A DNA stretch of 64,000 nt from a bacterium (GCA_022825065.1 JAJDYR010000011.1:42840-106839); one strand, 5' to 3'; shown: positions 589 to 58,031, numbered from the stretch's first letter. Notes: generated by a model from the letters alone, not told the origin. A program made the numbers and translations.

Positions 589-795
589 GGGGTGGTGAAA
601 ACGCCCTGATTATCAGGGGATGAAGGCAACCCCCCTAGCCCCCCTTGACAGGGGGGTAAAAAAAACCAATACACCGGCGAGGAGGGAACAAGAAAAAAAG
701 ATGGCCTCCCCCCGATAGGGGGGAACAACAAAAAGACCCGCCTTGTCAGGGGGGTAAGGGGTGTGCCCTTTGGAAAAGGCTTTTTCAACAATCCC
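589..795. repeat. TIR-bounded mosaic palindromic element E1 (degenerate left end; C-rich core variant)
   Basis: Left end ggtggtgaaaacgcc (degenerate), right end ggctttttcaacaatcc. The core caacccccctagccccccttgacagggggg ... ccttgtcagggggg encloses a CCCCCC-GATA-GGGGGG hairpin. On the minus strand, U-rich tracts follow the hairpins. Confidence 0.75.
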
Positions 796-863
796 TCGGC
801 GAAGCGCGCGGCTTTTCCGGACTACACGGAGCCAAGGTTCCATTGCTCCCCGCCTCCGGGAAA

Positions 864-1139
864 TCATTCTTCCTCGAGGCGCACGGCGGCGTCGATCAGG
901 ATGCGGTAGATCTGCTTGAGGACATCGGGCGGGCACGGACCCTCGTTGCCGTCCAGCACCCTGGCGAGCACCTCGCCCTCGCGCGCTTCGTCCTTGACGG
1001 CGATGCCGCGCGCGCTCTTGTATTCACCGACTTCGAGACAAATTTTGAGCCGATCGTTGATGAAGCGGACGATCTCCGCATCGCACGCATCAATCCGCTC
1101 CCTGAAACCGGACAACCCATCCGCCATGCCGCGCTCCAT
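864..1139 (-). CDS. Chorismate mutase (AroQ class, monofunctional)
   Basis: 91 aa. RERIDACDAEIVRFINDRLKICLEVGEYK...DEAREGEVLARV...LKQIYRILIDAAVRLE matches the helical AroQ chorismate mutase pattern. Confidence 0.75.
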   Translation of the reverse strand: MERGMADGLSGFRERIDACDAEIVRFINDRLKICLEVGEYKSARGIAVKDEAREGEVLARVLDGNEGPCPPDVLKQIYRILIDAAVRLEEE

Positions 1140-1376
1140 TTTTAAGAACGTAATCGAAACGGAAACGGCATTATACCACGATTCGCGGTGGTTTCATTCC
1201 CGCGGACCCGAATCTTGCGAAACACCCCCGGAAAGCCTTTCCCGATGCGCAAAGCGCTTGCGAGCGGCGCGTTTTTCATTGCCGCAGGCAGCGTGAATTT
1301 GGTATCTTGCCCCCATGCGACGCACGAATTTTTTCGCTATCGATGTACATTCTCTCCCGAAAAAGGAGTCCTTCAC

Positions 1377-3221
1377 ATGCTTCGTCATTTTCATCTGCTC
1401 CTCGTCATCGTTTTCGTTCTCACTCTGGGATTCGCCGGGAGCGCCTCGGCGCAGAGTTTCTCCGACGTCGTCGTGTTCGGCGACAGCCTGAGCGATTCGG
1501 GCAACGCGGCCCTGGCGAACGGGTTGCCCGCGGGCAACAGCTTCACTACGAACCCCGACCCCGTCTGGGCCGAGGTCGTCGCGGGGGCCTTCGGCGCGTC
1601 GGGGAACAACTCGCTCGCGGGCGGGCCGAACTACGCCTTCGCAGGCGCCTGCGTGAACCCGGCCACGCCCTGTACGCAAGACATCGTGCCGACGGTGACG
1701 GAGCAGATCGACTCGCACCTCTCCGCACGAGGCGGAAGCGCCGACCCGAACGCGCTCTACGCCGTCTGGGGCGGCGCGAACGACGTCGCCGACTCCGCGC
1801 TGAACGACACCCCCAACGCGCTGGGCCACGTTCTGGCGGCCGCGGACGCCGCCGTCGCGCAAGTCCAACGTCTGCGCGAAGCCGGCGCGCGTATCGTCGT
1901 CGTGTCCAACGTACCCGACATCTCCCTGGCACCCTACGCCGTCAACCAGGGCCCGCTCGCCCAGGGCGCGCTGGGCGCGCTGGCCGGCGAATACAACAGG
2001 AAACTCGACGCCGGCATCCGCGAGGGTGAAGACGGCGTCGTCCCCGTCAACCTCCACGCCCTGATCCGTGAAATCGCCGCAAACCCCGGTACGTACGGCT
2101 TCACCAGCGTCACCGGAACGGCCTGCGGGGCGCCGAACGCGGACAGCGCGGTCTCCATCCTGTGCGGACCCGAGGGTTCCCCCTCTCCCGTGACCTATGC
2201 GCCCGGCGCCAATCAAACGCACCTGTTCGCGGACCGCAGCCACCCGAGCGGCGCGGGGCACGCGATGATGGCGGCTCTGGCCACCTCCGCGCTCGCGGCC
2301 CCGCTGCAGGTTTCGCTCGCGGGCGAGGCGGGCGCGGAGGCCGCGGAGGCTCACCACGGCGTCATTTCGGCGGAGCGGGCCGCGGATTTCGCGCTGCCCG
2401 TCGGGAGCTGGCGCGGCTATGCGCGGGGCGGGTTCGGCGCGGGCGAGCCGGGCGCTTTCGCGCGTCTCGGGGAAATCGATTCCGGCATGACCGTCATTAC
2501 CCTGGGCGCGGGCCACCGCGCAGGGCCGAACCTCTCATGGGGCGCTGCGCTGAGCGTCGCCAGCCACGAGAACGAACTCACGGGCGCGAACCTGGATAGC
2601 GACGTGGCGCTCGGCTCGCTGCACGGCGCATGGCGCAGCGGCGGGCTCCAGGTGAGCATCGCCCTGAGCCTCGGCCAGACGTCGGTGGACGTAGAGCGTA
2701 CGGTCACCCTCGGAGCGTTGACGCGCGTCGAGCGCGGCTCCACCGAAGCCGCCCAGTTCGGGGGCGAATTCGAGCTGGCATGTACAATGGGAGCTTCCGG
2801 GACTCTCCGGCATGGGCCGTTTTTCGGTCTCTCGCTGCTCAATCAGGAGGTCAAGGGCTACCGGGAGAGCGGGAATTCCTCGACCGCGATGAATTTTTCG
2901 GACTTCTCGCGCAACTCGCTCATCGCGCGCGGCGGCTACCGCTTCGGCTGGAGCGTCGGTGGATTTCTCCCCTATGCCCGCATCGCCTATGAACGCGAAC
3001 TCGAGGACGAGCCCATCCGCGTCTCGGCGGGTTCGAACACCATGCCCGGGCGCTTCACGCTTCCCGGCTTCGAGCCTGCGGCCAGCGCCGTGAGCGCAGA
3101 CTTAGGGCTGAGCACGAAACTCGGCGAGCGCATGAGCGGCCACCTGGGCTACTCCGGACGCTTCGGCGAAGACTCGCGCCGCAGCCACCGTCTCTCGCTG
3201 GCTTTGCGGATGGTGTTTTGA
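1377..3221 (+). CDS. GDSL/SGNH esterase autotransporter (EstA-like)
   Basis: ATG at 1377 follows aaaggag. Signal peptide MLRHFHLLLVIVFVLTLGFAGSASA, GDSL block VVVFGDSLSDSGN, and a C-terminal beta-barrel region ending ...LSLALRMVF (terminal Phe). The track start at 1188 adds a non-coding-looking leader. Confidence 0.85.
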   Translation: MLRHFHLLLVIVFVLTLGFAGSASAQSFSDVVVFGDSLSDSGNAALANGLPAGNSFTTNPDPVWAEVVAGAFGASGNNSLAGGPNYAFAGACVNPATPCTQDIVPTVTEQIDSHLSARGGSADPNALYAVWGGANDVADSALNDTPNALGHVLAAADAAVAQVQRLREAGARIVVVSNVPDISLAPYAVNQGPLAQGALGALAGEYNRKLDAGIREGEDGVVPVNLHALIREIAANPGTYGFTSVTGTACGAPNADSAVSILCGPEGSPSPVTYAPGANQTHLFADRSHPSGAGHAMMAALATSALAAPLQVSLAGEAGAEAAEAHHGVISAERAADFALPVGSWRGYARGGFGAGEPGAFARLGEIDSGMTVITLGAGHRAGPNLSWGAALSVASHENELTGANLDSDVALGSLHGAWRSGGLQVSIALSLGQTSVDVERTVTLGALTRVERGSTEAAQFGGEFELACTMGASGTLRHGPFFGLSLLNQEVKGYRESGNSSTAMNFSDFSRNSLIARGGYRFGWSVGGFLPYARIAYERELEDEPIRVSAGSNTMPGRFTLPGFEPAASAVSADLGLSTKLGERMSGHLGYSGRFGEDSRRSHRLSLALRMVF

Positions 3222-3233
3222 GGGCGAAGAAAA

Positions 3234-4295
3234 TCAGGGAGCGCCGCCGAGGCAGGGAGAGACTTCGCGGATGAAGCGCTCGGCCACGGCGCGCCAGGTG
3301 TAAGCGGCTGCGCGCTCTATTCCGCGCCGGCCCAGTTCATCGCGCAACTCCTTGTTCTTCAGCAGGTTGATGAGCGCATCGGCAAGGGCGACCTCATCCC
3401 CCGGCGGCAGCAGGACGCCCGCGTCAGCCACGATCTCGGGCGCCGCCGCCACTTCGAGCGCCACCACGGGCAGTCCCGCCGCCATGGCTTCGAGATATGC
3501 GATGCCGAAACCCTCCTGAAGCGACGGCAGGCAGAAAACGTCCGCCGCAGCGTATTCCCGGCGCACGGCCTCATCGCCGGGCACCTCGCCCAGGAGCGTC
3601 ACGGCGTTCTCGAGGCCCAGCCTGCCCACCTGTTTTTCAAGGCGCTTCAAAGACGGCCCGCCACCCACGACGCGCAGCTTCGCACCGGGCGCGGCCTCAA
3701 GCACCCTCGGCATGGCCCCGATGAGGCTTTTGGTGTTCTTCCGGGGGTATTGACGCGCCACGGAGAGGATGGTGCGGCCAGTGGGACGCTTCGTCTCGCG
3801 GACATGCTCCCAATGGGCCGGATGGATCCCGTTGCCCACGACGCCGACTTTCTCCGCCGGCAGTCCATACGCCTCGCAGGCCACGCCCCGGCTGTATTCG
3901 CTGGTGACGATGACCCTGTCGGCGCGATGCGCGTTGGCGCGTTCGAGATGGGAGAGCGCGCGCAGGTACTGGCGCGGCGCGCCGCGTTCGAACCGCATCT
4001 CATCGGCCGAGATTCCGTGCAGATAGACGATGAAGGGGGTTTCCATGCTCAGATCGAAGCCGTCGATGTCGAAACCCACGATGAGGTCGAAGCCGTCGGG
4101 CGATACCCGATCTTTGAGCTCCAGGTTATACAGCAGCCTCTGGAGCAGGAGGCTCGATGCGCGCTCGTCCGGGCCGATGATCTCCACCGCGTGCCCGTTC
4201 GCTTCCAGCCCGCCCGCCAGGCCCGTGATGGCCGCCGCCGTGCCCGAGCCCTTCGCAACTTCGAGGGTCCAGGAGTTCAAAAAAGCGATCCGCAA
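3234..4295 (-). CDS. Glycosyltransferase family 4 (GT-B)
   Basis: TTG start preceded by GGGAGAGGAA. MRIAFLNSW..., with the C-terminal EX7E region LPSLQEGFGIAYLEAMAAGLPVVA. Confidence 0.8.
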   Translation of the reverse strand: MRIAFLNSWTLEVAKGSGTAAAITGLAGGLEANGHAVEIIGPDERASSLLLQRLLYNLELKDRVSPDGFDLIVGFDIDGFDLSMETPFIVYLHGISADEMRFERGAPRQYLRALSHLERANAHRADRVIVTSEYSRGVACEAYGLPAEKVGVVGNGIHPAHWEHVRETKRPTGRTILSVARQYPRKNTKSLIGAMPRVLEAAPGAKLRVVGGGPSLKRLEKQVGRLGLENAVTLLGEVPGDEAVRREYAAADVFCLPSLQEGFGIAYLEAMAAGLPVVALEVAAAPEIVADAGVLLPPGDEVALADALINLLKNKELRDELGRRGIERAAAYTWRAVAERFIREVSPCLGGAP

Positions 4296-4311
4296 GCCGT
4301 TCCTCTCCCGA

Positions 4312-4343
4312 TAAACAAAAGAGGGCGCAACCCCGCGCCCTCT
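4312..4343 (-). terminator. Intrinsic terminator-like hairpin downstream of the pterin dehydratase gene
   Basis: Minus strand: AGAGGGCGC-ggggtt-GCGCCCTCT followed by TTTGTTTAT. A perfect 9-bp GC stem plus a T-tract, 32 nt after the stop at 4375. Confidence 0.6.
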
Positions 4344-4374
4344 TCCATACGATTTCGTGAGGGGGATGCGCCCC

Positions 4375-4900: not shown

Positions 4901-5270
4901 GCGCAAATGCGGGAAGTTGCGGGCAAATGCGCGGGAGCCGGAAAACTTTTTTTGCCGCTGAATCTGAGTGCGCGACGCTCAGATTTATATGATAACTCTT
5001 TGTATTAAAATCAGTTAAATAATAAGAAATTTCCCGAAATTTATCGAAAAACCCCGTGAATTTATCGAATTTTATCGAAAATATCATTATTTTTATTATC
5101 GCCGTTATCCTCGAACCCATGAACATGATTTCTCTCCTCAAAACGATTTCCGCCCTTTCCCGATGACGGCGCGCGGGCGGCGATTGCCGCTTTCCTTCGC
5201 CGCGCGCACGATACCCGAGTCCGTGGTTTCAGGGAGTACGGCAATTGCGGGAAAATGCGGGGGAAATTTC
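4901..5270 (-). repeat. Iteron-bearing element, copy A (inverted relative to copy B at 60932-61387)
   Basis: Shares with copy B: phased GCGGG repeats (aaatGCGGGaagttGCGGGcaaatGCGcGGG; ttGCGGGaaaatGCGGGgg), an AT-rich block with three TTATCGAA(A) repeats (5041, 5062, 5072), the string aatttatcgaaaaaccccgtgaatttatc, and ggtatcgtgcgcgcggc. The middle is variable. Confidence 0.8.
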
Positions 5271-5280
5271 GGCCAATGTG

Positions 5281-5472
5281 GGTTTGTTGAAAAAGCCTCC
5301 CTCCTCAGGGGATAAAGGCAACCCCCCCTACCCCCCCTTGACAGGGGGGTATAAAAAGGCGATGCGTCCCCGCCGGGCTGAGGGGGTTTGCTTTTTCTTG
5401 CCCCCCTGACAAGGGGGGGTAGGGGGGGTTGGTTTTATGGGATTTCCCATTCAAGGACTTTTTCAACAGACC
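5281..5472. repeat. TIR-bounded mosaic element E2 (C7TAC7 core 5318-5432)
   Basis: ggtttgttgaaaaagcc ... ggactttttcaacagacc. The core arms gcaaCCCCCCCCTACCCCCCCCTTGACAGGGGGG / CCCCCCTGACAAGGGGGGGTAGGGGGGG enclose tataaaaaggcgatgcgtccccgccgggctgagggggtttgctttttcttg. Confidence 0.85.
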
Positions 5473-5981
5473 CTCAAGGGAGTGAATTTTTACCATCGAC
5501 AGAGGGCAGAGATTTCCGTAGGGGCGGACCTGCGTGTCCGCCCGCCAGGTTCGTCAATCGACCACCATCCCCCTTGCTTCTCCCCGCACATCGGGCGGAG
5601 CGACGGGCGACTCTCCTGCTACGCCGCCCTCGTCAACCTCCTGAACGCCGCCGGCGCGGCGCTTGAACCCAGGGCGTTCCGCGTCCCCGAACCCGGCCCG
5701 TAATGCCCCGCCTGCGGTGATGCTCCGCCGATCTCCCTTTGGGTGCGCCGCATCCGAAGCCCTTCGTTCAGGCGGATGGAACCCGGCGAGTCAAAAGGAT
5801 AGTCATGCGAAAATGAAGACGCCATACCGCTGGTTCATCGAAACGGTGTTGGTTCGGGAGGCATCCCGCGCGGCCCCGCTGAATCACCGGGGCGTACCGG
5901 TTCCCTCCCGCCCGGCGGGTCGAACCGGCCGCCGAAGAACGCATCCGGCCGGTCGGCGTTGACGGCGGATTGAAATGCCGA

Positions 5982-6009: not shown

Positions 6010-6128
6010 TGAACGCCTTGGAATCATCTTGAATGCGACACAGCCACGTGGAATGCGGCACAGCCACGCCATTCATCTCTCGCTCTGAACACGGTGCTCG
6101 CCGCGCCGACCGCCGGGAGGGACACGCC

Positions 6129-7934
6129 ATGAAAAAAGCCGTCCTGTTTTGCGCGCTCACCGTTTTTTCCCTAACGGTAAACACGGCATCGGCCGAAGAG
6201 TGCTACCTCGAACTGCGGGGAGGGGTAGGCGCGTGGAAGGGACCGTGCAAGGACGGCGAGGCGTACGGAACCGGCTTTGCAACCTTTCCCAATGGCACCT
6301 ACGCGGGCGAGGCGAAGGACGGCCGCGCGCACGGGCCGGGAAAATGGCGCATGGAGGACGGCCTGTATCTCGAGGGCGAATTCCGAAACGGCGACGTTCA
6401 CGGCCGACATGCGGGGAAAGACGCCCAGGGAAATCCCATCGTGGGCGAACTCCAAATGGGTCAGGACGGAAAGCGTCAGCTTATATTTCTCAGAGATGAC
6501 CGGCAGGCCGACGAGAAGAAGCCTTCGCAAGAAGCCGCATCAGGTGAGTCCCGGCCCGAAGACGCGGGCGAGGCGAAAGCCGCGGCCGGGGAAGCCGCAG
6601 CTTCGGGCGCGGCCGGTGGCGGCGAACCCGAGAGGCAGGTCGAATCCGCCGCCCCCGGTTCTTCGGACTCCCCGGTCGCGGCGACGAGCCCTCCCGGCGA
6701 CGCGGCCGCTACCGCCCCCGCCCCCGCGGCGCCCGCCGCCCGTGAGTGCAGGCTGGAAGCCGACGGCAAGTTCTTCGACTGGTCGGGGCCGTGCAAGGAC
6801 GGCAAGGCGCACGGAAACGGACGGGCGACGCTCTCCGGCGGAATGACCTACACCGGTTCGGCGGAAGACGGAAAACTGGAAGGCTACGGAACCGTTACGT
6901 CCGCGAGCGGACGAATGCTGTACCAGGGCGGCTACAGGGACGGGGCTCCGCACGGCAGGGGGACCTTCCTGGACGATGACGACAGGTATTACGTGTCGGA
7001 TTTCGACGATGGCCATGAGGTCGGCGAGAGGATACCCGCGCAAGACTTCGCCTCCGGCGAGTCTCCACCCGAAAATGCGGGCGATACGGACACCCTGGCC
7101 GGGGGAGACGCCCTTGCGGGTCTGGATGAGGACGGGGACCAGGAGGACGAGGACGGTTACGAGGCGGCCGTGAATGCTCTGGACGGCGGCGGCGGCGTGG
7201 TTCGCGCGGCGATGCCGGATGATGATTACGACGCCAAGCTGACGGAACTGGACAGGAGCGAGGCGCTCGAAATCGAAGCCCGTTTCCGCGAGAAGCAACT
7301 GGAGGCCGAGCGCCGGTCGGAAACCATCAAGGCCGGAATCCGCAAGGAGGAGGCGAAGGCCAAAGAAGCGGAGAAGCTGCGCCGCGACAGGGCGCACGCG
7401 GAAACTCTCAAGGCGTCGGGAATTTTCGAGGACGACTCGGCCTCGGGGCGTGAACAGGAGAGACGGGTGCGTACGCGGAGACGGCGTTCCGGCACGGCCC
7501 TGTTCGGCGGCAGCGGCGGCGCGCAAGGGTCGTTGGAGGATCTGTCTCGAAGGTTGCGCCGGCAGAGGGAAAATTTGGCGCGACAGCGCAGGATCGAACA
7601 ACAAAAGCGCCAGCGGCTTGAGCGGCAGCGCAGGATTGAACGGCAGAGGCGGGAGCGACTTGCGCGTCAGCGCAGGGCCGAACAGCAAAGGCGTGAGCAG
7701 CTCGAGCGGCAGCGAAGGGAACAACAAAAGGAAAGGGAACGACGGGAAAGGCTGGCGCGCCTGGCGCGCGAGCGCGACCGGAAAATCGCCAGTTTACGGA
7801 AAGCGCTCAACCGGGCGTTGGCCAGGTGCAACAGGCTGAAACACGGAAGGAGCGGGTGCAGAAACGGCCAAATACGCTTCTATAACGGAGAGATCCGGAA
7901 TGCGAGACGGAACTACGAAATTTTGTCCAGGTGA
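6129..7934 (+). CDS. Secreted MORN-repeat protein with acidic linker and Arg/Gln/Glu-rich coiled-coil tail
   Basis: ATG at 6129 follows gggaggga. Signal peptide MKKAVLFCALTVFSLTVNTASA. Two modules of CxLE...GPCKDG-AxGxG...YxGexkDGkxhG (MORN-like YxGxxxxGxxxGxG repeats). Tail LARQRRIEQQKRQRLERQRRIERQRRERLARQRRAEQQRREQLERQRREQQ. Confidence 0.7.
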   Translation: MKKAVLFCALTVFSLTVNTASAEECYLELRGGVGAWKGPCKDGEAYGTGFATFPNGTYAGEAKDGRAHGPGKWRMEDGLYLEGEFRNGDVHGRHAGKDAQGNPIVGELQMGQDGKRQLIFLRDDRQADEKKPSQEAASGESRPEDAGEAKAAAGEAAASGAAGGGEPERQVESAAPGSSDSPVAATSPPGDAAATAPAPAAPAARECRLEADGKFFDWSGPCKDGKAHGNGRATLSGGMTYTGSAEDGKLEGYGTVTSASGRMLYQGGYRDGAPHGRGTFLDDDDRYYVSDFDDGHEVGERIPAQDFASGESPPENAGDTDTLAGGDALAGLDEDGDQEDEDGYEAAVNALDGGGGVVRAAMPDDDYDAKLTELDRSEALEIEARFREKQLEAERRSETIKAGIRKEEAKAKEAEKLRRDRAHAETLKASGIFEDDSASGREQERRVRTRRRRSGTALFGGSGGAQGSLEDLSRRLRRQRENLARQRRIEQQKRQRLERQRRIERQRRERLARQRRAEQQRREQLERQRREQQKERERRERLARLARERDRKIASLRKALNRALARCNRLKHGRSGCRNGQIRFYNGEIRNARRNYEILSR

Positions 7935-22785: not shown

Positions 22786-23091
22786 GGGGGTTGTTGAAAA
22801 AGCTCTCGCTTCGCTTGGGATTCACCTTCGCTTTTGTTCGTCATTCCGGCGAAAGCCGGAATCCATTTTCGCCTTTGTCTTTGGCCCTTCGCCCGGCCAT
22901 TCTCTCTCCCGACCGGGGAAGATACGGACACCGCCATATATATCCGCCTCATCCGTTTCGGATTCGGGCGTGGCGCTCCCTCCCGTGAGTCGGAATCAAA
23001 TACGAAAACGAAAGCAAAAATCATAAAATGGATTCCGGCTTTCGCCGGAATGAAGGTGGTTTTCCCACATGGAGGGGCTTTTTCAACAACC
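22786..23091. repeat. TIR-bounded mosaic element E3 (cargo: inverted pair of CATTCCGGCGAAAGCCGGAATG hairpins)
   Basis: gggggttgttgaaaaagc ... ggggctttttcaacaacc. Internal hairpins at 22840-22864 and 23030-23053 in opposite orientation. The element ends 9 nt before the stop at 23101. Confidence 0.85.
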
Positions 23092-23100
23092 TCTTGAGGG

Positions 23101-24405: not shown

Positions 24406-24463
24406 GGCTCCTCCTGCTCCGCCGCGCTTCACGGCTTCCCGGCGCGGCAACCGCTCACTCCCC

Positions 24464-24667
24464 GGGGTTGTTGAAAAAACTGTCCTTGCTCGGAATTCAC
24501 CACTCAGCGGCATTTCAGCGTCATTGCCGCTCCTGTTGTAGGGGTCGCATATATGCGACCCGATTTTTTCCGCCACCCGACATGGGCCGCATATATGCGG
24601 CCCCTACAAAAACCGCCCCTCCCCGGTCGCGTGAAACCGTCGCTCATCAGGGCTTTTTCAATATCCC
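24464..24667. repeat. TIR-bounded mosaic element E4 (cargo: 72-bp GTAGGGG double hairpin 24537-24608); extra solo right end at 24731-24748
   Basis: ggggttgttgaaaaaac ... ggctttttcaatatccc, then the outer arm ccctcaaggggggagtgatttt. Cargo: tgtaggggtcgcatatatgcgaccc-gattttttccgccacccgacat-gggccgcatatatgcggcccctaca. Confidence 0.85.
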
Positions 24668-25091
24668 CCTCAAGGGGGGAGTGATTTTTCTCTCTCGCCG
24701 GTCGGTTACATACGACAAATCCAGAGTTCCAGGCTTTTTCAACAGCCCTCCCCGCTCGCGTTTGCCCCCTGAGTAACGCGGCGCCCCGATATCGACGACC
24801 CCGCGCGGTTCGAACTTGCCGCCCTTGCCAAGGTGCTCCCGGCCCCCGCGAAACTTGTAAACAGCGTGAATTATATGCCATATATGCCATGATTCAAGGC
24901 TGATATTTCGGTCGGGGCGTGATGTGGACGCCGACCCCGCTCACGGGGGCGAGACCGGAAACCGTCGCGACCGGGGCCTGTCGCCTCGCGAGCCGTGACC
25001 GCCATGCGCACCTGGGGGATCCATCCTGAAAGACGCCGTCACCAACCCAGCCGAAAACGCTTCGCCGACGCCCGCGCGGGCGACGATCGCC

Positions 25092-27637: not shown

Positions 27638-28113
27638 GGGGGTTGTTGAAAAAGCCGGAGAGAGAAAATTAGCTTGTGTGTAGGGGTCGCATATATGCGA
27701 CCCTGATTTTTCCCACCCATTACAAGGGCCGCATATATGCGGCCCCTACAAAAACCGTCCCCTCCCGGGTCGTGTCAAACCCTCGTCTTGTATGGCCACC
27801 CTATCGACCTCATCCTGAGTAGGCGCGCAAGCGCCGTATCGAAGGATGGGAGACGCAAACGCTCCCTCCGTGGGGTTGTTGAAAAAGCCCCTGAGAAGGT
27901 AATGGCCCCCCTGAAAGGGAAACCCCATAAAGGCAACCCCCCCTACCCCCCCTTGTCAGGGGGGTATAAAAAGGCAACGCCCACCGCCGGTAGAAGGACT
28001 TTTTTTCTTGTCCCCCTGACAAGGGGGGGTGGGGGGGTTGGTTTTCGTACGAACCTCCCTCCCCGTTTGGTTCCATACGCCGCATCACGAAATCAGGCCT
28101 GTTTCAACGTCCC
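27638..28113. repeat. Composite mosaic element E5 (72-bp double hairpin 27679-27750, a further hairpin module, second left end 27872-27890, C7TAC7 core 27933-28041, degenerate right end)
   Basis: gggggttgttgaaaaagcc at 27638 and ggggttgttgaaaaagccc at 27872. The degenerate right end ggcctgtttcaacgtccc (28096-28113) overlaps the last codons of the convergent PrpD-family gene. Confidence 0.8.
27683..27712 (+). terminator. Terminator-like hairpin within E5, downstream of the dehydrogenase gene
   Basis: GGGGTCGCATATATGCGACCC followed by tgaTTTTTccc on the + strand, co-oriented with the gene ending at 27578. Confidence 0.5.
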
Positions 28114-29460
28114 CTGCGAAACCACCCCTCCCACCGCATTGTCGAAAACCACCACCGGATCGAAATCCGCGATATCCACCTCAGGCAACGAAACGCCGGC
28201 GTAAGCTCCCGCCGTGTGGAACTTCTCGAGCAGTTCCGCATCGCTCAGCGGCCTCTCCGGCATCCCGCGGGCCATACCGCAAAAGCCGGTGGCGGAGCGG
28301 CCGTCGCTCAGGGTCAGCGTGAGGCGGGTGCTTTCGGGGTATTTCGCGCGCATGGCGTCGGTGGAGAGATCAGGCGCGCGCTTCACGCTCACCCGCGCCA
28401 TGAGGGAGGACATCTGCGGGCTGACGGCGGCGCCGGGCGCCAGGTCTTCGAAGCGCACCCGGCCGTGGATCGCGGCGCAGGCCAGGGCGTAAGGCAGGCT
28501 GAACTGCATCTCCTGCGGCGTGGCCGGATTCGGGAAGACGAGGCTCTCATGGACGAGCTTCGGCACCTCGGCGTGAACCCCTGCGACCTCGTTCACGCTC
28601 GCGCCGAGTTCCGCCATGAGTTCGTTCATCTGCTCGATGGCCGCGAGCGCCGCCGAACATACCGGAGAGGTCTTGAACAGAAGGCCCGGCTCGCACAGGC
28701 GCCAGCGCCGGCCGATGGTGTCGAGCTCGGCCTCTACGGCCTCACCCCGGTTCAACAGCTTCAGGAAACCCCGGCTATCCTCGAACGCGTCTTCAGGCCC
28801 CGTAAGCCCGGCCCCGGCCGCCCGGGCGAGCGTAACGGCCCGGCGCGCGGTCTCCCCGACGAGCAGCGGCTTGGCGTCCGTGCCCAATACGGCCTTCCCG
28901 CCGCCTGTGGCGGCCGCGGCCAGGCCGATAGCGCTCGTCATCGCGTCCTCATCGAGACCGAGCAGACATCCTGCGGCAGCGGTCGCGCCCGTGAGGCCGA
29001 AAGTCACCGTACTCCACCAGCCGTCGAAATAGTGATCGTGCGTGCAAACCTCGGCGAGGGTGTACGCCACTTCCGAACCCGCGACGAAGGCGCGGCGAAG
29101 CGCGTCGGCGCCGGAGCCTGTTTCCTGCGCGAGGGCCATGGCGGCGGGCAGCACCACCGCCGAGCCGTGCATGATGCCCGTGTAGGAGGTATCGTCGAAA
29201 TCCCAGACGTGCGCCGCCGTTCCGTTCACGAGCGCGGCGGCTTCGGCGCCCGCGCGCCCGCCCGTCGTCAGCGTCGCCCTCCCCTCCCCGCGCGCCGTAG
29301 CCTGAGCCAGGGCGCGCACCGATGGATGGGCGCCCCCTGCGAGCATGACGCCCAGGGTGTCGAGCATGGCCCTGTCCGCAGCCGTCCTGACCTCGGGATC
29401 GGCCCGCTCCAGATCGCAGGCGAACGCCGCGAATCGTCTGGCGATTGACGGTGTTTTCAT
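28093..29460 (-). CDS. MmgE/PrpD-family protein (2-methylcitrate dehydratase-like)
   Basis: Start MKTPSIARRFAAFACDL (ATG at complement of 29458-29460). A typical PrpD N-terminal pattern (...MLDTLGVMLAGG.HPSV..L) over a 455-aa length. Confidence 0.8.
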   Translation of the reverse strand: MKTPSIARRFAAFACDLERADPEVRTAADRAMLDTLGVMLAGGAHPSVRALAQATARGEGRATLTTGGRAGAEAAALVNGTAAHVWDFDDTSYTGIMHGSAVVLPAAMALAQETGSGADALRRAFVAGSEVAYTLAEVCTHDHYFDGWWSTVTFGLTGATAAAGCLLGLDEDAMTSAIGLAAAATGGGKAVLGTDAKPLLVGETARRAVTLARAAGAGLTGPEDAFEDSRGFLKLLNRGEAVEAELDTIGRRWRLCEPGLLFKTSPVCSAALAAIEQMNELMAELGASVNEVAGVHAEVPKLVHESLVFPNPATPQEMQFSLPYALACAAIHGRVRFEDLAPGAAVSPQMSSLMARVSVKRAPDLSTDAMRAKYPESTRLTLTLSDGRSATGFCGMARGMPERPLSDAELLEKFHTAGAYAGVSLPEVDIADFDPVVVFDNAVGGVVSQGTLKQA

Positions 29461-29677
29461 GTGGCGATGCCGTTCCGGGGCGAGGGGAAACGAGGCCGTA
29501 ACGGAGATGACCGCTACGGGTTCCGGGAAGGATAAACCATTCGGGAAATTTCGGGAACCAAAAAACGGCAAGCGGTATCAGAATCGCCTGCATCCTGTGG
29601 ACGGCCATGCAGGATATATATCCACTCCCGCGGGGCGTTTACCCGACCGGGAGGACAATCCCGCATTATCTCCTGCA

Positions 29678-29986
29678 AGGGGTTGTTGAAAAAGTCCTTG
29701 CCCGACTTTCGGGATCGTTCGCCACAGGGACAGGTCGCGACCTGTCCCTACAAAGGCAACCCCCCTACCCCCCTTGTCAGGGGGGCAAGAAAGAACAAAA
29801 CCCCGGCGAGGAGGGAGCAAGAAAAAAAGAAGGCTCCCCCCGACAGGGGGGAACAACAAAAAGACCCCCCTGACAAGGGGGGGTAGGGGGGGTTGCTTTT
29901 GTCCCCTGACAAGAGGGGTTGGGGAGTTGATCGCGGCCACGCAGGGAGCGTTCGCTCCCTTGATAAAGGCCTTTTCAACAGGCCCT
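29678..29986. repeat. TIR-bounded mosaic element E6 (GGGACAGG hairpin plus C7TAC7 core 29756-29896, variant inner module)
   Basis: aaggggttgttgaaaaagtcc ... aggccttttcaacaggccc. Contains gggacaggtcgcgacctgtccctacaaagg. It ends 2 nt before the stop at 29989. Confidence 0.85.
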
Positions 29987-31216: not shown

Positions 31217-31307
31217 TGGAGTCTCCTTTTCGCTCTTTCGTTCTCGGGTCCTCCAAGGATAGGCATAATACGGCACTGAGGCAGGGACAAGCAAACCACC
31301 TGTTTTC

Positions 31308-31494
31308 GGGGTTGTTGAAAAAGCCTGCAATGCCGGCAATGGGATACCGCCTTGCCGAAGGGATTGTAGGGGCCGCATATATGCGGCCCGAGTTCCGCCG
31401 TCGAAAAACAGGGACGCATACTATGCGTCCCCTACAAAACCACCCCCTCCACGGTCGCGTCGAATCCTCGTTAATCGGGGCTTTTTCAACAACC
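31308..31494. repeat. TIR-bounded mosaic element E7 (cargo: 72-bp GTAGGGG double hairpin 31365-31436, opposite orientation)
   Basis: ggggttgttgaaaaagcc ... ggggctttttcaacaacc. Cargo: tgtaggggccgcatatatgcggccc-...-gggacgcatactatgcgtcccctaca. Confidence 0.85.
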
Positions 31495-31519
31495 TCTTTT
31501 CCTAGTGGATCGTCCCCCC

Positions 31520-33286: not shown

Positions 33287-33440
33287 GGGGGTCCTCCTCA
33301 CATAAGAGGCAAGAGTCCCCGCCATCTTGCCAGATGTGTTCCGGGAAGCGCAAAGAGAGTCAAGTTTGATTGGGACCAACTTCGAATACGGGGTTAAGAA
33401 TTGCCCAAAATGTGGTGGGTAAAATCACTCCCCCCTTGAG

Positions 33441-33586
33441 GGGCCTGTTGAAAAGCCTTTGTAAAAGGAGCAACCCCCCCTACCCCCCCTTGTCAGGGGG
33501 GTAAGAAAAAGCAAAACCCCCTCGACCCGGAGGGGGCGCGTCGCCTTTTTATACCCCCCTGACAAGGGGGGGTAGGGGGGGTTGCC
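33441..33586. repeat. Mosaic element E8 (left end plus C7TAC7 core 33470-33586; no right TIR)
   Basis: aaaatcactccccccttgaggggcctgttgaaaagcc, then the core. It ends 15 nt before the stop at 33602. Confidence 0.8.
33502..33538 (-). terminator. Terminator-like module inside the E8 core
   Basis: Minus strand: CGCCCCCTC-cgggtc-GAGGGGG followed by TTTTGCTTTTTCTTA, co-oriented with the gene ending at 33602. Confidence 0.55.
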
Positions 33587-41334: not shown

Positions 41335-41671
41335 GGGGGTAGTTGAAAAAGCTATCCTCAAGGGGATACTGCCTGCGGCGCATTCGCCGCACTTGCCCGT
41401 AATACCCTCCTCATCCCGAGTAGGCGCGCTTGCGCGCCGTATCGAGGGAGCGCCCCTTCGATACGCGGCTTCGCCGCTACTCAGGGTGAGGGGTGTCGGG
41501 GAACAGCGGAGCCTGCCCCGAGCGAAGTCGAGGGGGCGGCTATTCAGGGTGAGGCAGACATCGGGGCGCGCAAGACGAGGGTTTGACGCGACCGGTGAGG
41601 TCAGTTCCGGCAGAGAAAGGAGGAACTGCTTCAAACGGGCACGCTTCCAGGATCGACTTTTTCAACATCGG
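41335..41671. repeat. TIR-bounded mosaic element E9 (cargo: several different hairpin modules)
   Basis: gggggtagttgaaaaagc ... cgactttttcaacatcgg. The internal module cctcatcccgagtaggcgcgcttgcgcgccgtatcgagggag is related to 27808-27851. Ends 6 nt before the stop at 41678. Confidence 0.8.
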
Positions 41672-42948: not shown

Positions 42949-43188
42949 GGGGTTATTGAAAAAGTCCCCCTCCTCAGGGGATAAAAGCAACCCCCCCTAC
43001 CCCCCCTTGTCAGGGGGGCAAGAAAAAGCAAAACCCTTCAGCCCGGCGAAGGCGCATCGCCTTTTTATACCCCCCTGACAAGGGGGGTAGGGGGGGGTTG
43101 CTTTCAAAGAGGGGGGTCGGGGGTTCACGCGAAAGCGGCCTTCTCGCTAAAGACAATGTCCCCCGACTAGGGGTTTTTCAACAAGCCC
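42949..43188. repeat. TIR-bounded mosaic element E10 (C7TAC7 core 42987-43101)
   Basis: ggggttattgaaaaagtcc ... ggggtttttcaacaagccc. Confidence 0.85.
43019..43056 (-). terminator. Terminator-like module inside the E10 core
   Basis: Minus strand: GCGCCTTC-gccgggct-GAAGGG followed by TTTTGCTTTTTCTTG, co-oriented with the gene ending at 43208. Confidence 0.55.
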
Positions 43189-52522: not shown

Positions 52523-52610
52523 GCTACCTCCTCCTTAAGGGGCTGCCTGAAAAGTCCCATGGAGCGACTTTGATTGAGCGTACGCTTTTGAAGTTCACTT
52601 CCCCCTTGAG

Positions 52611-52868
52611 GGGGCCGTTGAAAAAGTCCTTCTCATCTCAAAGGAGCAACCCCCCCTACCCCCCCTTGTCAGGGGGGCAAGAAAAAGCAAAACCCCTCGG
52701 CCCGGTGGGGGCGCATCACCTTTTTATCCTCATGACAAGGGGAGCAAGAAAAAACAAACAAAAACCCCTCTACCGGCGGCGGGCGTCGCCTTTTTATACC
52801 CCCCTGACAAGGGGGGGGGTAGGGGGGGGGTGCCTTTATCCCCTGACGAGGACTTTTTCAACAACCCC
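52611..52868. repeat. TIR-bounded mosaic element E11 (C7TAC7 core 52646-52833 with two tandem inner modules)
   Basis: ggggccgttgaaaaagtcc ... gactttttcaacaacccc, with outer arm cacttcccccttgaggggg. Ends 1 nt before the stop at 52870. Confidence 0.85.
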
Positions 52869-52869
52869 C

Positions 52870-54055: not shown

Positions 54056-55066
54056 CTAGTTCATCTTCATGCTGGCCAGCGCCTTCTCGAGCGGGCCTCT
54101 CTCGATGCCCTCGCCACCGGCGAAATCGGGCAGACGGCGAATCTTGCCGCGGCCCTTCTGCACCTTGGCGGTCGCGTTCAGCGCGTTGATGATGCGCGGC
54201 GTGATCTTATAGAGCGGCCGCACCACGTTGATGGAGCGCCTGGCGATGGAATAGTCCACCTTGCGGCCCTTCGAGATCAGCCACTTGTGATAGACCTTGG
54301 CGAACTTGTCGGGGTCTTTTTTCCAGAGGTTCGCGGACTTGAGATACGCCCGCAAATACTTCACCACGCCTTCGGGGTTGCTCTTGAGCGTCCGGGGATT
54401 CGCGAGTTCGATGAAGATCATCGCCGGCGGATTGTCGTATTTGCAGTAATCCACGATGGGCCTGCCCCATTTCTTGTCCGTGAGACGGAAAGACGTGGGC
54501 GCGCCGATGACCATCGCCTGAACCACCTTGGCCCGGAAGGCCGAGAGACGCTCCGCCGTGGTCGTGTTCATGATCTTGACGTCTTTGGGCTTCATGCCGA
54601 AGGCCGGCAGAATGCCGTTGTCAAAGACGAAGTGGGTGGACGTCCCCTTCTTCTCGGCCATGGTCTTGCCCTTGAGGTCGGCCACCGTCTTGATGGGAGA
54701 ATCGGGATGCACCCAGATCGAAATGGACTTGCACCAGGAGGAACTCGCGGAGACCATCACCAGCCCCGCCTTTTTCGCCACCCCGTCCACGTAGGGCCGC
54801 GTGGCGCCGTGGCCCACGTCGAGACTGCGCGAGAGCAGCGCCTCGATGACGAGCTTGCCTTGCGGGAACACCTTCACGCTCCAATTGCCCTTGCCGAACT
54901 CCTCGTCAAAATAGCCCATCCCCATGGCGACCGCCGTGAAGGAGCCGAACGTCTGGCGGTGCATGCCGATGCGGAACTTGGCCGCCTCGGCGTCGGTCGT
55001 CACGAAACCGACCGGCACGAGGCTCAGCGCGAGGATCAGACTTAAAAACCCGAACCACTTTCTCAT
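54056..55066 (-). CDS. Periplasmic substrate-binding protein (NMT1/SsuA-like), orphan
   Basis: Start MRKWFGFLSLILALSLVPVGFVTTDAEA (signal peptide; ATG at complement of 55064-55066, after GAGGAG). No adjacent permease or ATPase genes. Confidence 0.55.
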   Translation of the reverse strand: MRKWFGFLSLILALSLVPVGFVTTDAEAAKFRIGMHRQTFGSFTAVAMGMGYFDEEFGKGNWSVKVFPQGKLVIEALLSRSLDVGHGATRPYVDGVAKKAGLVMVSASSSWCKSISIWVHPDSPIKTVADLKGKTMAEKKGTSTHFVFDNGILPAFGMKPKDVKIMNTTTAERLSAFRAKVVQAMVIGAPTSFRLTDKKWGRPIVDYCKYDNPPAMIFIELANPRTLKSNPEGVVKYLRAYLKSANLWKKDPDKFAKVYHKWLISKGRKVDYSIARRSINVVRPLYKITPRIINALNATAKVQKGRGKIRRLPDFAGGEGIERGPLEKALASMKMN

Positions 55067-55195
55067 CTTGTTTCTCCTCTCGGAAAATGAAAATGGACAG
55101 TTTGCCTCACAAAATAGTGGACGCTTTTCTTGAACTGGATGGACAGAGTATGCCACAAGCGCCATTTCGTTGCATCCGGCGCAATGCGCCCTGCC

Positions 55196-55448
55196 GAGGG
55201 TTGTTGGAATAGTCCACACAGGTCCGGAACTGTCCACTGCCGTCATTCCGGCGAAAGCCGAAACCGGGCGGAGGCGCAGGCTCTCTCCTTGAAAACCAAC
55301 CCCCCCTACCCCCCCTTGACAGGGGGGCAAGAAAAACCAAAACCCCTAAGCCCGGCGAGGGCGCATCGCCTTTTTTTACCCCCCTGTCAAGGGGGGGTAG
55401 GGGGGGTTGCCTTTATCCCTTGAGGATGAGGGCTTTTTCAACAACCCC
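55196..55448. repeat. TIR-bounded mosaic element E12 (CATTCCGGCGAAAGCCG hairpin plus C7TAC7 core 55296-55410)
   Basis: gagggttgttggaatagtcc (degenerate) ... gggctttttcaacaacccc. Confidence 0.8.
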
Positions 55449-55515
55449 CGACAGGGAGTCAGAAAACCGATGCCCCCGACGGGGGTTTTCAAGAGACAAG
55501 GAGCGGACACCCATC

Positions 55516-56331
55516 TCAAAGCCGCATCAGATCCTCGCCGGCGACGATCTCGCCGTCGAAATAAGGGGCTATCGCCTCGCGCACCTTCTCATTCGGCGCC
55601 AGGGGCGGGACGACGTGCGAGAACACCAGTTTCCCGGCGCCTGCCTCGGCGGCCGTTCTCCCGACTTCTTCCGCCGTGGCGTGGTGGGCCGCCACAATCT
55701 TCGCCGTGGCCCGGAAACTCCCGTAATTCTCGTTGATCAGTTCCGGCAGGCAGGGGTGCATCACCAATACGTCCGCCCCCCGCGCGAGAGGAACCAGCTT
55801 GTCCGTGGGGCTGCCGTCGCTCGCGATGACGATCTTTCTCCCCTCCGCCTCGAACGCGTAGGAGACGATGTCGTCCACGTTGCCGTGATGCGTGCCCTTG
55901 TCCACGCGGACCCCGATGCCGTCCACCTCGAGCGCATCGCCGGGCGCAAGGACGGTCACCTCGATGTCGCTTCCCGCCCTGGGCTTCCCCTCCTCCGCCC
56001 TCAGATCGATGTCGTACTCGTAATAGCGGAGCATCCGCTCGACGATTTCCTTGACGGGCGGCGGCCCGTAGACCTGGAGCGGCGTCGATGCGCCCATGAT
56101 CCACCGCGAGATGAAGAACTCGCCGAAACCCGTGTAGTGATCGGAGTGGAAATGCGTGAAGAACAGGTGGTCCACCTTGCTGACCTGAAAGCCCGACTTC
56201 ATGATCTGGGTGGCGGCGTGCCGGGCGGCGTCGACGAGATAGAGCTTACCGCCCTTGACGAGCGCGTTGCACGGGCCGCTTTTTTCAGGAGTAGGCGGCG
56301 GCGCGCCCACGCCCAGGAGTATGAGTTCCAA
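55516..56331 (-). CDS. MBL-fold metallo-hydrolase (RNase Z / beta-lactamase-like)
   Basis: FFTHFHSDHY (HxHxDH). I chose the TTG start at complement of 56329-56331, after GGGGAGGA, giving MELILLGVG. The start is uncertain. Confidence 0.7.
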   Translation of the reverse strand: MELILLGVGAPPPTPEKSGPCNALVKGGKLYLVDAARHAATQIMKSGFQVSKVDHLFFTHFHSDHYTGFGEFFISRWIMGASTPLQVYGPPPVKEIVERMLRYYEYDIDLRAEEGKPRAGSDIEVTVLAPGDALEVDGIGVRVDKGTHHGNVDDIVSYAFEAEGRKIVIASDGSPTDKLVPLARGADVLVMHPCLPELINENYGSFRATAKIVAAHHATAEEVGRTAAEAGAGKLVFSHVVPPLAPNEKVREAIAPYFDGEIVAGEDLMRL

Positions 56332-56442
56332 AACGGGTTTCCTCCCCTTCACCAGAGTGTGTGAGCGTCTTGCCCGAACGGATTCCTGGGGGTATTCTTG
56401 CGCGAACATCCTCATTCACGTCAACCGGAAAGAGAGACAACC

Positions 56443-57303
56443 ATGAAGCGCCTGTCCGAACATCTATATGCAGAGACCGACTACGATTGGGCGAACGTGG
56501 GCGCCGCCGTTACCGATAACGGCGTCGTCCTCCTGGACTGCCCGGTGCGGCCGAGCGATTCGCGCAAATGGCAGGAAGAGGTCTCGGCCTTAAGCCCCCG
56601 GGGCGTGCGCTACCTCATCGCCACCGACTACCACGGCGACCACACCACGGGCTCCTCGTTCATCGAGGGAGACGTGGCGCTCATCGCCCCCCAGTACGTG
56701 TATGACGAAATATCGAAGGGCGACAACGCATTCTCCAAGGAAATCTTCGTGAATACGCTGCGGGACCTGGGCTTCACCGAGGAGGCGGACGAGATCACGA
56801 ACGCCGCCGTGCCGCTGCCCCAGTTCTGCTTCGAGGACAGCCTCACGCTGCACCTGCCGCCGCTCACGTTTGAGATTCACCGCAAGGGCGGCCATTCGCC
56901 TGCGTGCACCTCCGTCCTCGTGCCCGAGGAGGGCGTGCTCTTCTCAGGCGACGTCGTCATCAACGGCCCCTCGGCCGGGATGCGCGACGCCTTCGTGCAG
57001 GAATGGATAGACGCGCTCGCCTGGGTGGAGGGTCTGGACATCGAGACCATCGTCCCCGGCCACGGCGATATATGCGGGAAGGAAGTGGCCACAAAACTCA
57101 AAAATACCCTGAGCGGGATGATGGAGATCATGGTCGAGGTCGTCGCCGCCGGCAAAGAAAAAGCCGAAGCCGTCCAGGACCCGAAATTCCTCACCTATTT
57201 CCACGCCGACGAAACGCGCGGCGAATACTGGCTACAGCAGAGAAAAGACACCTTCCGCGATGGTCTCGAACGGCTTTATGACGAGGTCGTCGCGCAGCGC
57301 TAG
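56443..57303 (+). CDS. MBL-fold metallo-hydrolase
   Basis: ATG at 56443. VVLLDCPVRPSD...LIATDYHGDHTTG... Divergent from 55516..56331. Confidence 0.7.
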   Translation: MKRLSEHLYAETDYDWANVGAAVTDNGVVLLDCPVRPSDSRKWQEEVSALSPRGVRYLIATDYHGDHTTGSSFIEGDVALIAPQYVYDEISKGDNAFSKEIFVNTLRDLGFTEEADEITNAAVPLPQFCFEDSLTLHLPPLTFEIHRKGGHSPACTSVLVPEEGVLFSGDVVINGPSAGMRDAFVQEWIDALAWVEGLDIETIVPGHGDICGKEVATKLKNTLSGMMEIMVEVVAAGKEKAEAVQDPKFLTYFHADETRGEYWLQQRKDTFRDGLERLYDEVVAQR

Positions 57304-57339
57304 AAACCGGCTCCATCATTATCCGACAAGGAGGCGTAA

Positions 57340-57768
57340 ATGAGAGTAGAAGAGAAGAGAATCGGCCGCATCTTCCGCGTCACGCTCGAGGCCGGAGACA
57401 ATTTCTATACGAACCTGTGCGATCTCGTGAAGGAGAAGAACATCCGCGCGGGTTCGGTTTTCCTCATCGGCGCCCTCGCTGAGACGGACATGATATCGGG
57501 CTTCAAGAGCATGGACGGCTACGACGTCGACCGCCTGCACTTCGAAGGCTGGCGCGAACTCGTGGCGCTCGGCAACATCACCTGGCCGGACGAACCGCCC
57601 CTGGCGCTCGGCGACGTGACCTGGGACGAGCCCCAGCCCTACGTCCACGTGCACATGGCCATCAGCGGCGGGCCGGGCGAACCCGAGAAAGTCCTGGCGG
57701 GCCACCTGAGCGACGGCGTCATCAAAGGCGGGATGGTCGTCGAAATCTACGAACACCTCGACGCCTAG
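57340..57768 (+). CDS. PPC-domain (DUF296) protein
   Basis: 142 aa. GRIFRVTLEAGDNFYTNLCDLVKEKNIRAGSVFLIGAL...HVHMAISGG......LAGHLSDGVIKGGMVVEI. Confidence 0.55.
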   Translation: MRVEEKRIGRIFRVTLEAGDNFYTNLCDLVKEKNIRAGSVFLIGALAETDMISGFKSMDGYDVDRLHFEGWRELVALGNITWPDEPPLALGDVTWDEPQPYVHVHMAISGGPGEPEKVLAGHLSDGVIKGGMVVEIYEHLDA

Positions 57769-57793
57769 ATGCGTCCCTGATCCGCCACAGTGC

Positions 57794-58031
57794 GGGGCTG
57801 CGGGAAAAGCTCCCTTTTTCGGGGGTAGAGGGGATGCCCCTCTTGACGGGAAAACCAACCCCCCCTGCCCCCCCTTGTCAGGGGGGTATAAAAAGGCGAT
57901 GCGCCCCCGCTGGACTGAGGGGGTTTTGCTTTTTCTTGCCCCCCTGACAAGGGGGGGTAGGGGGGGTTGCATTTATATGGGGTTTCCCTTTCAGAGGGTT
58001 GCCATTCCCCTCTCAGGGGTTTTCAACAGCC
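57794..58031. repeat. Mosaic element E13 (C7TAC7 core 57855-57970; degenerate left end)
   Basis: Right end ggggttttcaacagcc. Left end ggggctgcgggaaaagctcc is only weakly TIR-like. Confidence 0.7.
57901..57937 (+). terminator. Terminator-like module inside the E13 core
   Basis: GCGCCCCC-gctggactga-GGGGG followed by TTTTGCTTTTTCTT on the + strand, co-oriented with the gene ending at 57768. Confidence 0.55.

Follow-up and report, generated by a model that had tools for sequence, protein, structure and literature searches.

Thirteen intergenic loci (E1 to E13) in a 64,000-nt stretch of bacterial DNA (GCA_022825065.1 JAJDYR010000011.1:42840-106839; hereafter the window, with positions counted from its start) share one pair of terminal inverted repeats and enclose different hairpin-forming interiors. 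Our sequence comparisons indicate that these loci are very probably miniature inverted-repeat transposable elements (MITEs) whose movement would rely on a DDE transposase acting in trans; this enzyme belongs to the IS1182 family, is absent from the window and is encoded between the same ends in close relatives. We demonstrate that the elements insert with a 5-bp duplication, that some of them insert into hairpin loops, including those of the family's own members, and that their interiors change in place. The original prediction had placed the loci nearer to bacterial interspersed mosaic element (BIME)-like mosaics, or to a cassette system, than to simple MITEs; this was not supported, as the terminal-repeat shells showed every MITE property tested. 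They form a dense and nested MITE family with rich yet essentially ordinary bacterial junk-DNA dynamics, in which conventional processes explain the swappable cargo.

Terminal repeats, target duplications and an autonomous partner

The whole window was searched for the 18-mer GGGGTTGTTGAAAAAGCC, allowing up to 3 mismatches. This resulted in 21 matches against 0.06 expected, in agreement with the constant termini proposed for the thirteen loci. All of these matches are located inside the listed loci, except for one extra end at positions 24732-24749 that extends E4. Facing ends in the window are 150-450 bp apart, the element proper spans from the GGGG to the CCCC of the 18-nt terminal inverted repeats, and the 18-nt end itself is not palindromic. 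The elements have sizes of 146-476 bp and no coding capacity for a transposase. Ends are degenerate, or absent on one side, in E1, E5, E8, E9, E12 and E13; the original prediction had correctly given E1, E8, E12 and E13 and had missed the degenerate right ends of E5 and E9.

An exact scan for the 18-mer, using one genome per species, gave at least 115 stretches with matches (L-numbered loci), and 89 of those listed are present in 15 related metagenome-assembled genomes (MAGs); five of the 15 carry the label Nitrospinota, and several consist of a complete chromosome of ~4 Mb. The termini therefore recur outside the window. The window and 115 related loci were pooled (873 kb, 321 ends) to count ends and their pairing. 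Adjacent ends in the orientation “+ then -” were within 600 bp of each other in 87 of 90 cases (median 242), versus merely 13 of 53 for the orientation “- then +”, showing that left and right ends pair beyond chance. Further L-numbered assemblies (e.g. L167-L186) were used to compare strains at orthologous sites. In three of these, L178, L168 and L183 (sample ERZ23491646), the three regions compared show no difference from the window, and the MAG isolate 138114a6 is syntenic with the window at 23.9-29.5 kb with a DNA identity of 88-94%. The same elements are found at orthologous loci in independent assemblies, including the complete MAG chromosomes, which rules out that they are assembly artefacts.

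A 5-bp direct repeat immediately outside the 18-nt ends was perfect in 13/80 end pairs, compared to 0.7 by shuffled pairing, and matched in at least 4 of 5 positions in 22/80 pairs, compared to 2.9. Within the window, the duplication is clear for E7, and also for E4 if its right terminus is position 24748. The decisive case in the window for insertion with a 5-bp duplication is E7. This element of 189 bp is present in the window and in L183 and is missing from L185 and L186, whose empty site contains a single 5-mer (CACGAG GAAAA CAGGTGG), and the neighbouring protein is 100% identical among filled and empty assemblies; the strain comparison suggested earlier thus revealed a presence/absence polymorphism. 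If that outer end is taken as the right terminus, E4 lies between two copies of TCCCC, its inner right end becomes internal cargo, and composite elements would still move as a unit. A second candidate pair of filled and empty sites, L053 and L112, was discarded as unclean because the gene content differs.

The candidate autonomous partner was found in a relative, L053, whose host genome shares 88-94% DNA identity with the window across the syntenic stretch. Between the same ends, about 1.5 kb apart, L053:1003-2448 encodes a 481-aa protein that matches NCBIfam NF033551 “IS1182 family transposase” with 347.7 bits (cut-off 270) and also matches Pfam DUF772, DDE_Tnp_1 and DDE_Tnp_1_6. This insertion sequence (IS) is flanked by the duplication CTCAA. 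A metagenome scan with the L053 transposase yielded 51 loci with 52-80% identity, including 26 full-length copies of 1466-1593 bp whose ends are GGGGCTGTTGAARAAG (GGGGCTGTTGAA(A/G)AAG and its complement); a perfect duplication of 5 bp flanks 12 of these copies. In MAGs of Phycisphaerae and Alphaproteobacteria, the exact 18-mer likewise directly precedes the start of the transposase gene. Two intermediates were identified, a 428-bp internal-deletion derivative retaining both gene ends (L090:4406-4833) and a 128-bp foldback with two right ends (L104:2757-2884). In line with the original prediction, ORF (open reading frame) scans and tblastn with the partner transposase did not detect a transposase in the 64-kb window. 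Low-GC ORFs of the window were considered as hidden transposases and ruled out, since they encode ankyrin/Sel1, PIN and HigB proteins. Tn3-type or IS903-type ends, considered as look-alikes, were dropped when the IS1182 partner was found.

The elements of the thirteen loci are thus small and lack a transposase, end in inverted repeats, duplicate 5 bp of their target, have a partner element that is autonomous and, in the case of E7, are present in some strains and absent from others. Interiors derived from the parent IS by deletion, as in “type I” MITEs, were found only in L090 and L104 of relatives and not among the window elements; the interiors of the latter are unrelated hairpin repeats, which makes them “type II” MITEs.

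More distant relatives of the IS insert site-specifically in a GCGCTGCCGCGTCCACTTC-like sequence. Those at L121-L150 (55-62% identity) insert in both orientations in a conserved target of ~19 nt, GCGCTGCCG(C/G)GT(C/G)CACTTC, with duplication of the 5 bp at its centre; in four copies, the 12-nt flanks are perfectly inverted. In addition, a different repeat (…GCCTTTTTTAACCGCAAAGCACGCTAAGAAGG…) is headed by the identical 18-mer in the AT-rich Bacteroidales MAG MFD00905.bin.1.196, where the upstream flank is also conserved (L035, L044, L046, L048, L066, L079, L087 and L097), and yet another repeat carries it in a Zixibacteria MAG (L055, L099). This suggests that the same transposon ends spawned unrelated short elements in distant phyla.

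Table 1. Terminal-repeat elements E1 to E13 and standalone hairpins in the window.
Feature	Position	Ends and flanks	Interior
E1	589-795	left degenerate, GGGGTGGTGAAAACGCC, with indel; right 778-795	C6TAGC6 palindrome, long centre as in E6
E2	5280-5473	5280-5297 (+); 5456-5473 (-)	canonical “A-type” MITE; entire unit one long palindrome
E3	22787-23093	22787 (+); 23076 (-)	nested hairpin-ended element 22840-23054, GTCATTCCGGCGAAAGCCGGAATCC ... inverted copy
E4	24464-24748	left 24464-24481; outer right 24732-24748; TCCCC on both sides, 24459-24463 and 24749-24753	REP-like GTAGGGG doublet 24538-24607; internal extra right end 24651-24668, then H-hairpin half and 63-nt spacer
E5 (composite)	27639-28113	27639 (+); second end 27872 (+); right 28096-28113, degenerate	GTAGGGG doublet 27680-27749; “D” hairpin 27809-27842; C7 palindrome after second end
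E6	29679-29985	both present	C7 palindrome with long centre; REP-like hairpin GGGACAGGTCGCGACCTGTCCCTAC
E7	31308-31496	target-site duplication TTTTC, 31303-31307 and 31497-31501	189-bp MITE with GTAGGGG doublet
E8	33441-33586	left degenerate, GGGCCTGTTGAAAAGCC, abuts H-hairpin half at ~33421-33440; right absent	C7 palindrome
E9	41336-41671	left 41336; right degenerate, GACTTTTTCAACATCGG	two inverted “D” hairpins; GGTTTGACGCGACCGG motif
E10	42949-43188		A-type MITE; additional hairpins ahead of right end
E11 proper	52611-52868	flanks TTGAG / CTCAA, inverted, no direct duplication	C7 palindrome, duplicated centre
E11 with left extension	52539-52868	degenerate end 52539-52557	53-nt spacer ending in H-hairpin half
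E12	55197-55448	left degenerate; right 55431-55448	includes C7 palindrome; half CATTCCGGCGAAAGCC hairpin, deletion remnant of nested element
E13	57794-58031	both degenerate (GGGGCTGCGGGAAAAGCT ... GGGGTTTTCAACAGCC)	C7 palindrome
Standalone REP-like hairpin	62409-62436	outside any terminal-repeat element	GTAGGGGCGGTTCGCGAACCGCCCCTAC
Standalone REP-like hairpin	60881-60911 (reverse strand)	outside any terminal-repeat element	GTAGGGACAGGCCCCTGCGCCTGTCC

Hairpin targets and changes of interiors

Several ends had originally been described as extending outward into a second arm. The sequence given for that arm has no match in the window at up to 3 mismatches; the true sequence, TCACTCCCCCCTTGAG, is one C longer and abuts three ends (right of E4, left of E8 and left of E11). 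It is half of the stem of CACTCCCCCC-TTGAG-GGGGGAGT, which we named the H hairpin and which is the terminal hairpin of a separate repeat of ~165 bp with 46 intact copies in the sample. At these three ends, the element was inserted in the loop of this hairpin, and hence the “arm” is a split target and not a part of the element. The possibility that it is an extended terminal repeat was rejected because the 5-bp duplication is located directly outside GGGG, and because the arm is absent in copies from other phyla. The ~165-bp repeat is itself a miniature element with hairpin-shaped ends, TCACTCCCCCCTTGAGGGGGAGTCG…CGACTCCCCCTCAAGGGGGGAGTGA, present at L053:830-990, in L170 and L169, and elsewhere.

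Other insertions are also found in hairpins. The insertion sequence of L053 is located in the H-hairpin loop, and L001 is inserted in an H-like hairpin, with a flanking TTGAAG repeat. The target of L117 (80% identity), CCCCCCT[GACAA]/IS/[GACAA]GGGGGGG, is a small hairpin within the arms of the C7TAC7 palindrome; indeed, C6-TTGWCA-G6 hairpins inside the elements' own C7TAC7 palindrome are among the insertion targets. L038 and L042 are inserted in the centres of repetitive extragenic palindromic (REP) palindromes, and short elements are likewise present in the H loop, in the centres of REP-like palindromes and in a recurrent GTCAAACGCGAC...GCGTTT motif. A worked example of nesting is L007:5900-6900, where elements occupy both loop positions of one palindrome. 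Flank complementarity at positions -6 to -14 is 45-56%, compared to a baseline of ~25%.

The original counts of interior modules, nine, three and two loci, were correct: the C7TAC7/G7TAG7 palindrome is present in E1, E2, E5, E6, E8 and E10-E13, the GTAGGGG double hairpin (measured at 70 nt) in E4, E5 and E7, and the CATTCCGGCGAAAGCCGGAATG hairpin in E3 and E12. When the 81 end-bounded units were clustered at 70% reciprocal coverage, the largest cluster contained 10 members and 46 units were singletons. The interiors consist of further families of small repeats with hairpin ends, which lie nested within each other. The E3 architecture is repeated at L020:6537-6884 and L078:2030-2336, with a copy of ~89% identity in L102, and the E2 copy in L178 is identical. 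REP sequences are recognised as imperfect palindromes of 20-40 nt with a 5' GTAG head, often in inverted doublets; among the parts of the elements, cargo modules (the doublets of E4, E5 and E7) fit this description, and the 18-nt ends do not. GTAG-headed perfect palindromes also occur on their own (GTAGGGGCGGTTCGCGAACCGCCCCTAC/GTAGGGACAGGCCCCTGCGCCTGTCC, Table 1), with many copies in relatives, which makes them an independent repeat class.

Comparison of orthologous sites bore out that the interiors are truly modular and swappable. At the E13 site, strains with an identical neighbouring protein differ in what lies at the same junctions: a short spacer of 44 bp, the C7 palindrome, a palindrome whose centre is another one, or a doublet of the REP-like kind. 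Alleles with different cargo share a rare left-end variant, GGGGCTGTGGAAAAAGC. Strains also differ in the palindrome centre at two other sites. At E6, L184 has the same left junction and arms, with the standard centre instead of the long one. At E12, L172 has a different centre, the centre is reversed in L167, and L171 contains the complete nested element. That CATTCCGGCGAAAGCCGGAATG element is complete in E3 as well, is reduced to its left half-hairpin in the window E12, and is retained in L167 only as the right terminal GGAATGAC. A unit of ~90 nt ended by GGGGTCAAAC replaces the palindrome centre in L172 and L174. The 94% relative L008 has a different right half in its E4 ortholog, and the alignment with its E5 ortholog has only gaps opposite the “D” hairpin and opposite the second end and palindrome. 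Four-way alignments of orthologous nests were too rearranged to read, and judging the independence of modules by their distance to the nearest end was uninformative because ends are so dense in the intergenic DNA.

The 31-nt palindrome arms have 0-2 differences between copies. Compared to window positions 55290-55400, the ~52-nt centre between two such arms is in the opposite orientation in L167. This could be due to a flip by recombination between the inverted arms, or to exchange with another copy.

Taken together, the most probable scheme is that self-targeted nesting builds the mosaics, and that homologous recombination or gene conversion among copies, anchored on the conserved 31-nt arms and the ends, would swap, flip and delete segments. 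Composite elements would go on transposing via their outermost ends, and the inverted flanks of E11, L119, L133 and L137 would be inversions between copies in repeated targets.

Position relative to genes and alternative explanations

The elements dominate the intergenic space, at about one per 5 kb as originally stated. The proximity to stop codons that had been noted for seven elements holds as a trend, with a different count: 10 of the 13 elements overlap a stop codon or have their end no more than 25 nt away from one. The fold of E2 is one long hairpin with -132.9 kcal/mol (z = -10.2), and that of E7 has -86.8 kcal/mol (z = -5.9). In the region of 22-34 kb, 36 terminator-like sites consisting of a hairpin and a T-run were detected versus 10.3 expected (3.5-fold), mostly within elements. 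Judged by sequence, it is plausible that such modules just after stop codons act as bidirectional transcription terminators. The stop codon of a PrpD-like ORF on the minus strand (28093-29571) is located at 28093-28095, just inside the right end of E5. This degenerate end also encodes the final six codons of the ORF (GTLKQA); hence, the insertion rewrote the C-terminus of the protein. At least the E7 copy is dispensable, as it is absent in some strains.

Could the hairpin modules primarily be host-selected terminators or regulatory sites at gene 3' ends instead of selfish passengers? Their position near stop codons and the enrichment of terminator-like sites, chiefly in elements, would fit, as would the divergence of the right arm, 6% versus 23% for the right end (the left side having been used for selection). 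However, the latter gap is partly caused by tolerated variant positions in the ends, and this comparison was set aside as evidence of selection because it is confounded by them. Moreover, the absence of E7 in some strains and the replaceable interiors show that the sites tolerate loss and change, and a position at stop codons is also expected when terminator hairpins are targeted and purifying selection acts against other insertions. We therefore regard host selection as the primary role as rather unlikely. The mosaic appearance would fit REP/BIME-type clusters spread by a REP-associated tyrosine transposase (RAYT), with the constant ends being merely another REP-like unit, and the GTAG-headed palindromes, standalone or as inverted doublets in E4, E5 and E7, point in that direction. 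The 18-nt end is not a palindrome, though, and the shells are bounded by inverted repeats, duplicate 5 bp of their target and have a partner that encodes a DDE transposase; by definition, BIMEs consist of REP units only, which alternate in orientation and are joined by set linkers, and lack terminal repeats and duplication. No HUH/Y1 transposase is present among the window ORFs scanned, and a RAYT motif regular expression, which is a weak test, had no match across the 873 kb. Spread of the shells by a RAYT is very unlikely in our view; a RAYT reading may apply to the GTAG-headed cargo alone, which may be a genuine REP class. A dedicated cassette system, in which the ends stay fixed and the hairpin cassette between them is replaced by a site-specific recombinase as in integrons, would account for different cargo with the same ends and junctions at orthologous sites of near-identical strains, but it is hardly credible: neither an integrase or recombinase among the window ORFs scanned nor an attC-like feature was found, and the exchange boundaries fall at perfect repeats, namely the ends and the 31-nt arms, that are long enough for homologous recombination. 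The deletion remnants and the reversed centre also fit general recombination.

Several observations weigh against mobilisation in trans by an IS1182-type transposase, or against its simplest form. With tblastn, no copy or fragment of the partner transposase was detected in the window, and the partner is known from relatives only. A recognisable duplication is present in merely about a quarter of the end pairs, and many flanks are unrelated or inverted. The duplication is 5 bp here, compared to 4 bp or none for the published IS1182-family members considered (ISPse1, ISMac2-related MITEs and IS1272). The window interiors have no similarity to the insertion sequence and, therefore, the window elements are not simple deletion derivatives of it. 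The preference for hairpin loops, although clear in individual cases, was modest in a crude folding test that is weakly discriminating (38% versus 24% in shuffles), and the target of E7 shows no obvious hairpin. Finally, the junction CACTCCCCCCTTGAG/GGGG is about 10 times more common than the expected reciprocal CGACTCCCCCTCAA/GGGG (29 versus 3), an excess of junctions keeping the outer H-hairpin half that simple insertion in the H loop does not predict. It might result from a deletion between two elements at both ends of an H element or, alternatively, from a replacement reaction like that of IS1272.

The latter possibility, “IR-replacing” transposition, holds that an incoming element substitutes a resident hairpin or MITE interior in one step. 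The targets of IS1272, a member of the IS1182 family, are stem-loops directly 3' of genes, which it replaces without duplication (PMC5678879). Many elements, and some full copies, have inverted flanks (TTGAG/CTCAA of E11, and L119, L133 and L137, the last two perfectly inverted over 12 nt), and replacement would account for the 29:3 excess. However, clean 5-bp duplications are common, so that standard staggered insertion certainly occurs; inverted flanks may also result from inversion between two copies in a repeated target; and the left-end variant shared by E13 alleles with different cargo shows that resident ends were kept and not replaced. We consider this mode of transposition improbable. 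We are equally doubtful that the transposase recognises inverted-repeat structures as such, mobilising unrelated hairpin-ended elements (the terminal-repeat shell, CACTCCCCCC, CATTCCGGCGAAAGCCGGAATG and GGTCAAAC) and replacing hairpins or MITE interiors in one step. If this were true, the transposase would in effect be exchanging terminator-like hairpin cassettes at fixed positions 3' of genes.

Neighbouring features and comparison with known systems

The window is an ordinary bacterial chromosome segment with 63% GC, encoding, among others, glycosyltransferase, GcvT/DMGDH-like, PrpD-like, Fic, ankyrin/Sel1, PIN and HigB proteins; Rfam and tRNA scans of the window gave no match. An AT-rich repeat of ~180 bp with reiterated TTATCGAAA/TTTCGATAAA motifs, which is not a terminal-repeat element, is present at 4905-5087 and 61180-61385 (reverse strand), with more copies in L111, L029, L045 and L027. 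It is located upstream of a pterin-4a-carbinolamine dehydratase gene, is kept there in 8/8 related strains, and could have a regulatory function or encode a small RNA. On the E2 side of the dehydratase gene, at ~5.3-6 kb, there is a strain-variable island (window versus L175-L182), in which phage-type integrase, McrB-like, OLD-family nuclease, Fic and sulfate-transporter genes are alternatives by strain. Four consecutive same-strand ORFs of 520-646 aa follow (6033-7934, 7996-9558, 9593-11485 and 11520-13460). The GC and AT skews of this region are positive and unusually strong; the first ORF has a weak MORN-repeat match, and the four may be tandem paralogues of a repeat protein.

No new class of genetic system is revealed by the elements, which are of a known kind and unusually dense and nested here. 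They do provide a well-delimited mobile-element system for an uncultured lineage, with defined ends, duplication, partner transposase and target types, and population-level snapshots of a single intergenic site that is rebuilt repeatedly. For annotation, these repeats can be masked and spurious ORFs across them avoided, and for assembly, they explain contig breaks. For evolutionary studies, they are a natural test case of nesting by hairpin-loop targeting, of segment exchange driven by conserved palindrome arms, and of a possible co-option as terminators.

Classical bacterial MITEs such as Correia of Neisseria, RUP, ERIC and Nezha are 100-300 bp long, have terminal inverted repeats and a short duplication, fold as long hairpins, lie near gene ends and can serve as terminators or promoters. 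Their interiors are fairly uniform, in contrast to the single pair of ends with many unrelated interiors found here (46 of 81 units being singletons). The elements share intergenic hairpin mosaics in varied combinations at gene 3' ends with the BIMEs/REP sequences of enterobacteria (Tobes and Pareja 2006, PMC1525189), and the landing of insertion sequences in hairpin loops with IS1397 and ISKpn1, which target BIMEs/REP (PMC1525189). However, BIMEs lack terminal inverted repeats and duplication and are linked to RAYTs, whereas the shell described here is a MITE of the DDE type, with REP-like units in only part of its cargo. The GTAGGGG...CCCCTAC inverted doublets of E4, E5 and E7 resemble REPIN-RAYT systems (Bertels and Rainey) but are located inside terminal-repeat elements, beside a conserved flanking motif, and no RAYT was found among the window ORFs scanned.

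The closest likeness is to the IS1182 family, which includes IS1272 of Staphylococcus and ISPse1 of Paracoccus: the partner transposase scores above the NCBIfam IS1182 equivalog cut-off, and the partner is a single-ORF element of ~1.5 kb with inverted ends of 16-20 nt. The insertion in stem-loops just 3' of genes is as described for IS1272 (PMC5678879). ISMac2-related MITEs of Methanosarcina acetivorans are likewise short derivatives with the ends of an IS1182-family IS, and these and ISPse1 generate 4-bp duplications (PMC3281130, PMC3852290). Compared to such IS1182-family MITEs, the elements described here differ in that their interiors are other, nested hairpin repeats that are not derived from the IS, and in their very high density of about one element per 5 kb.

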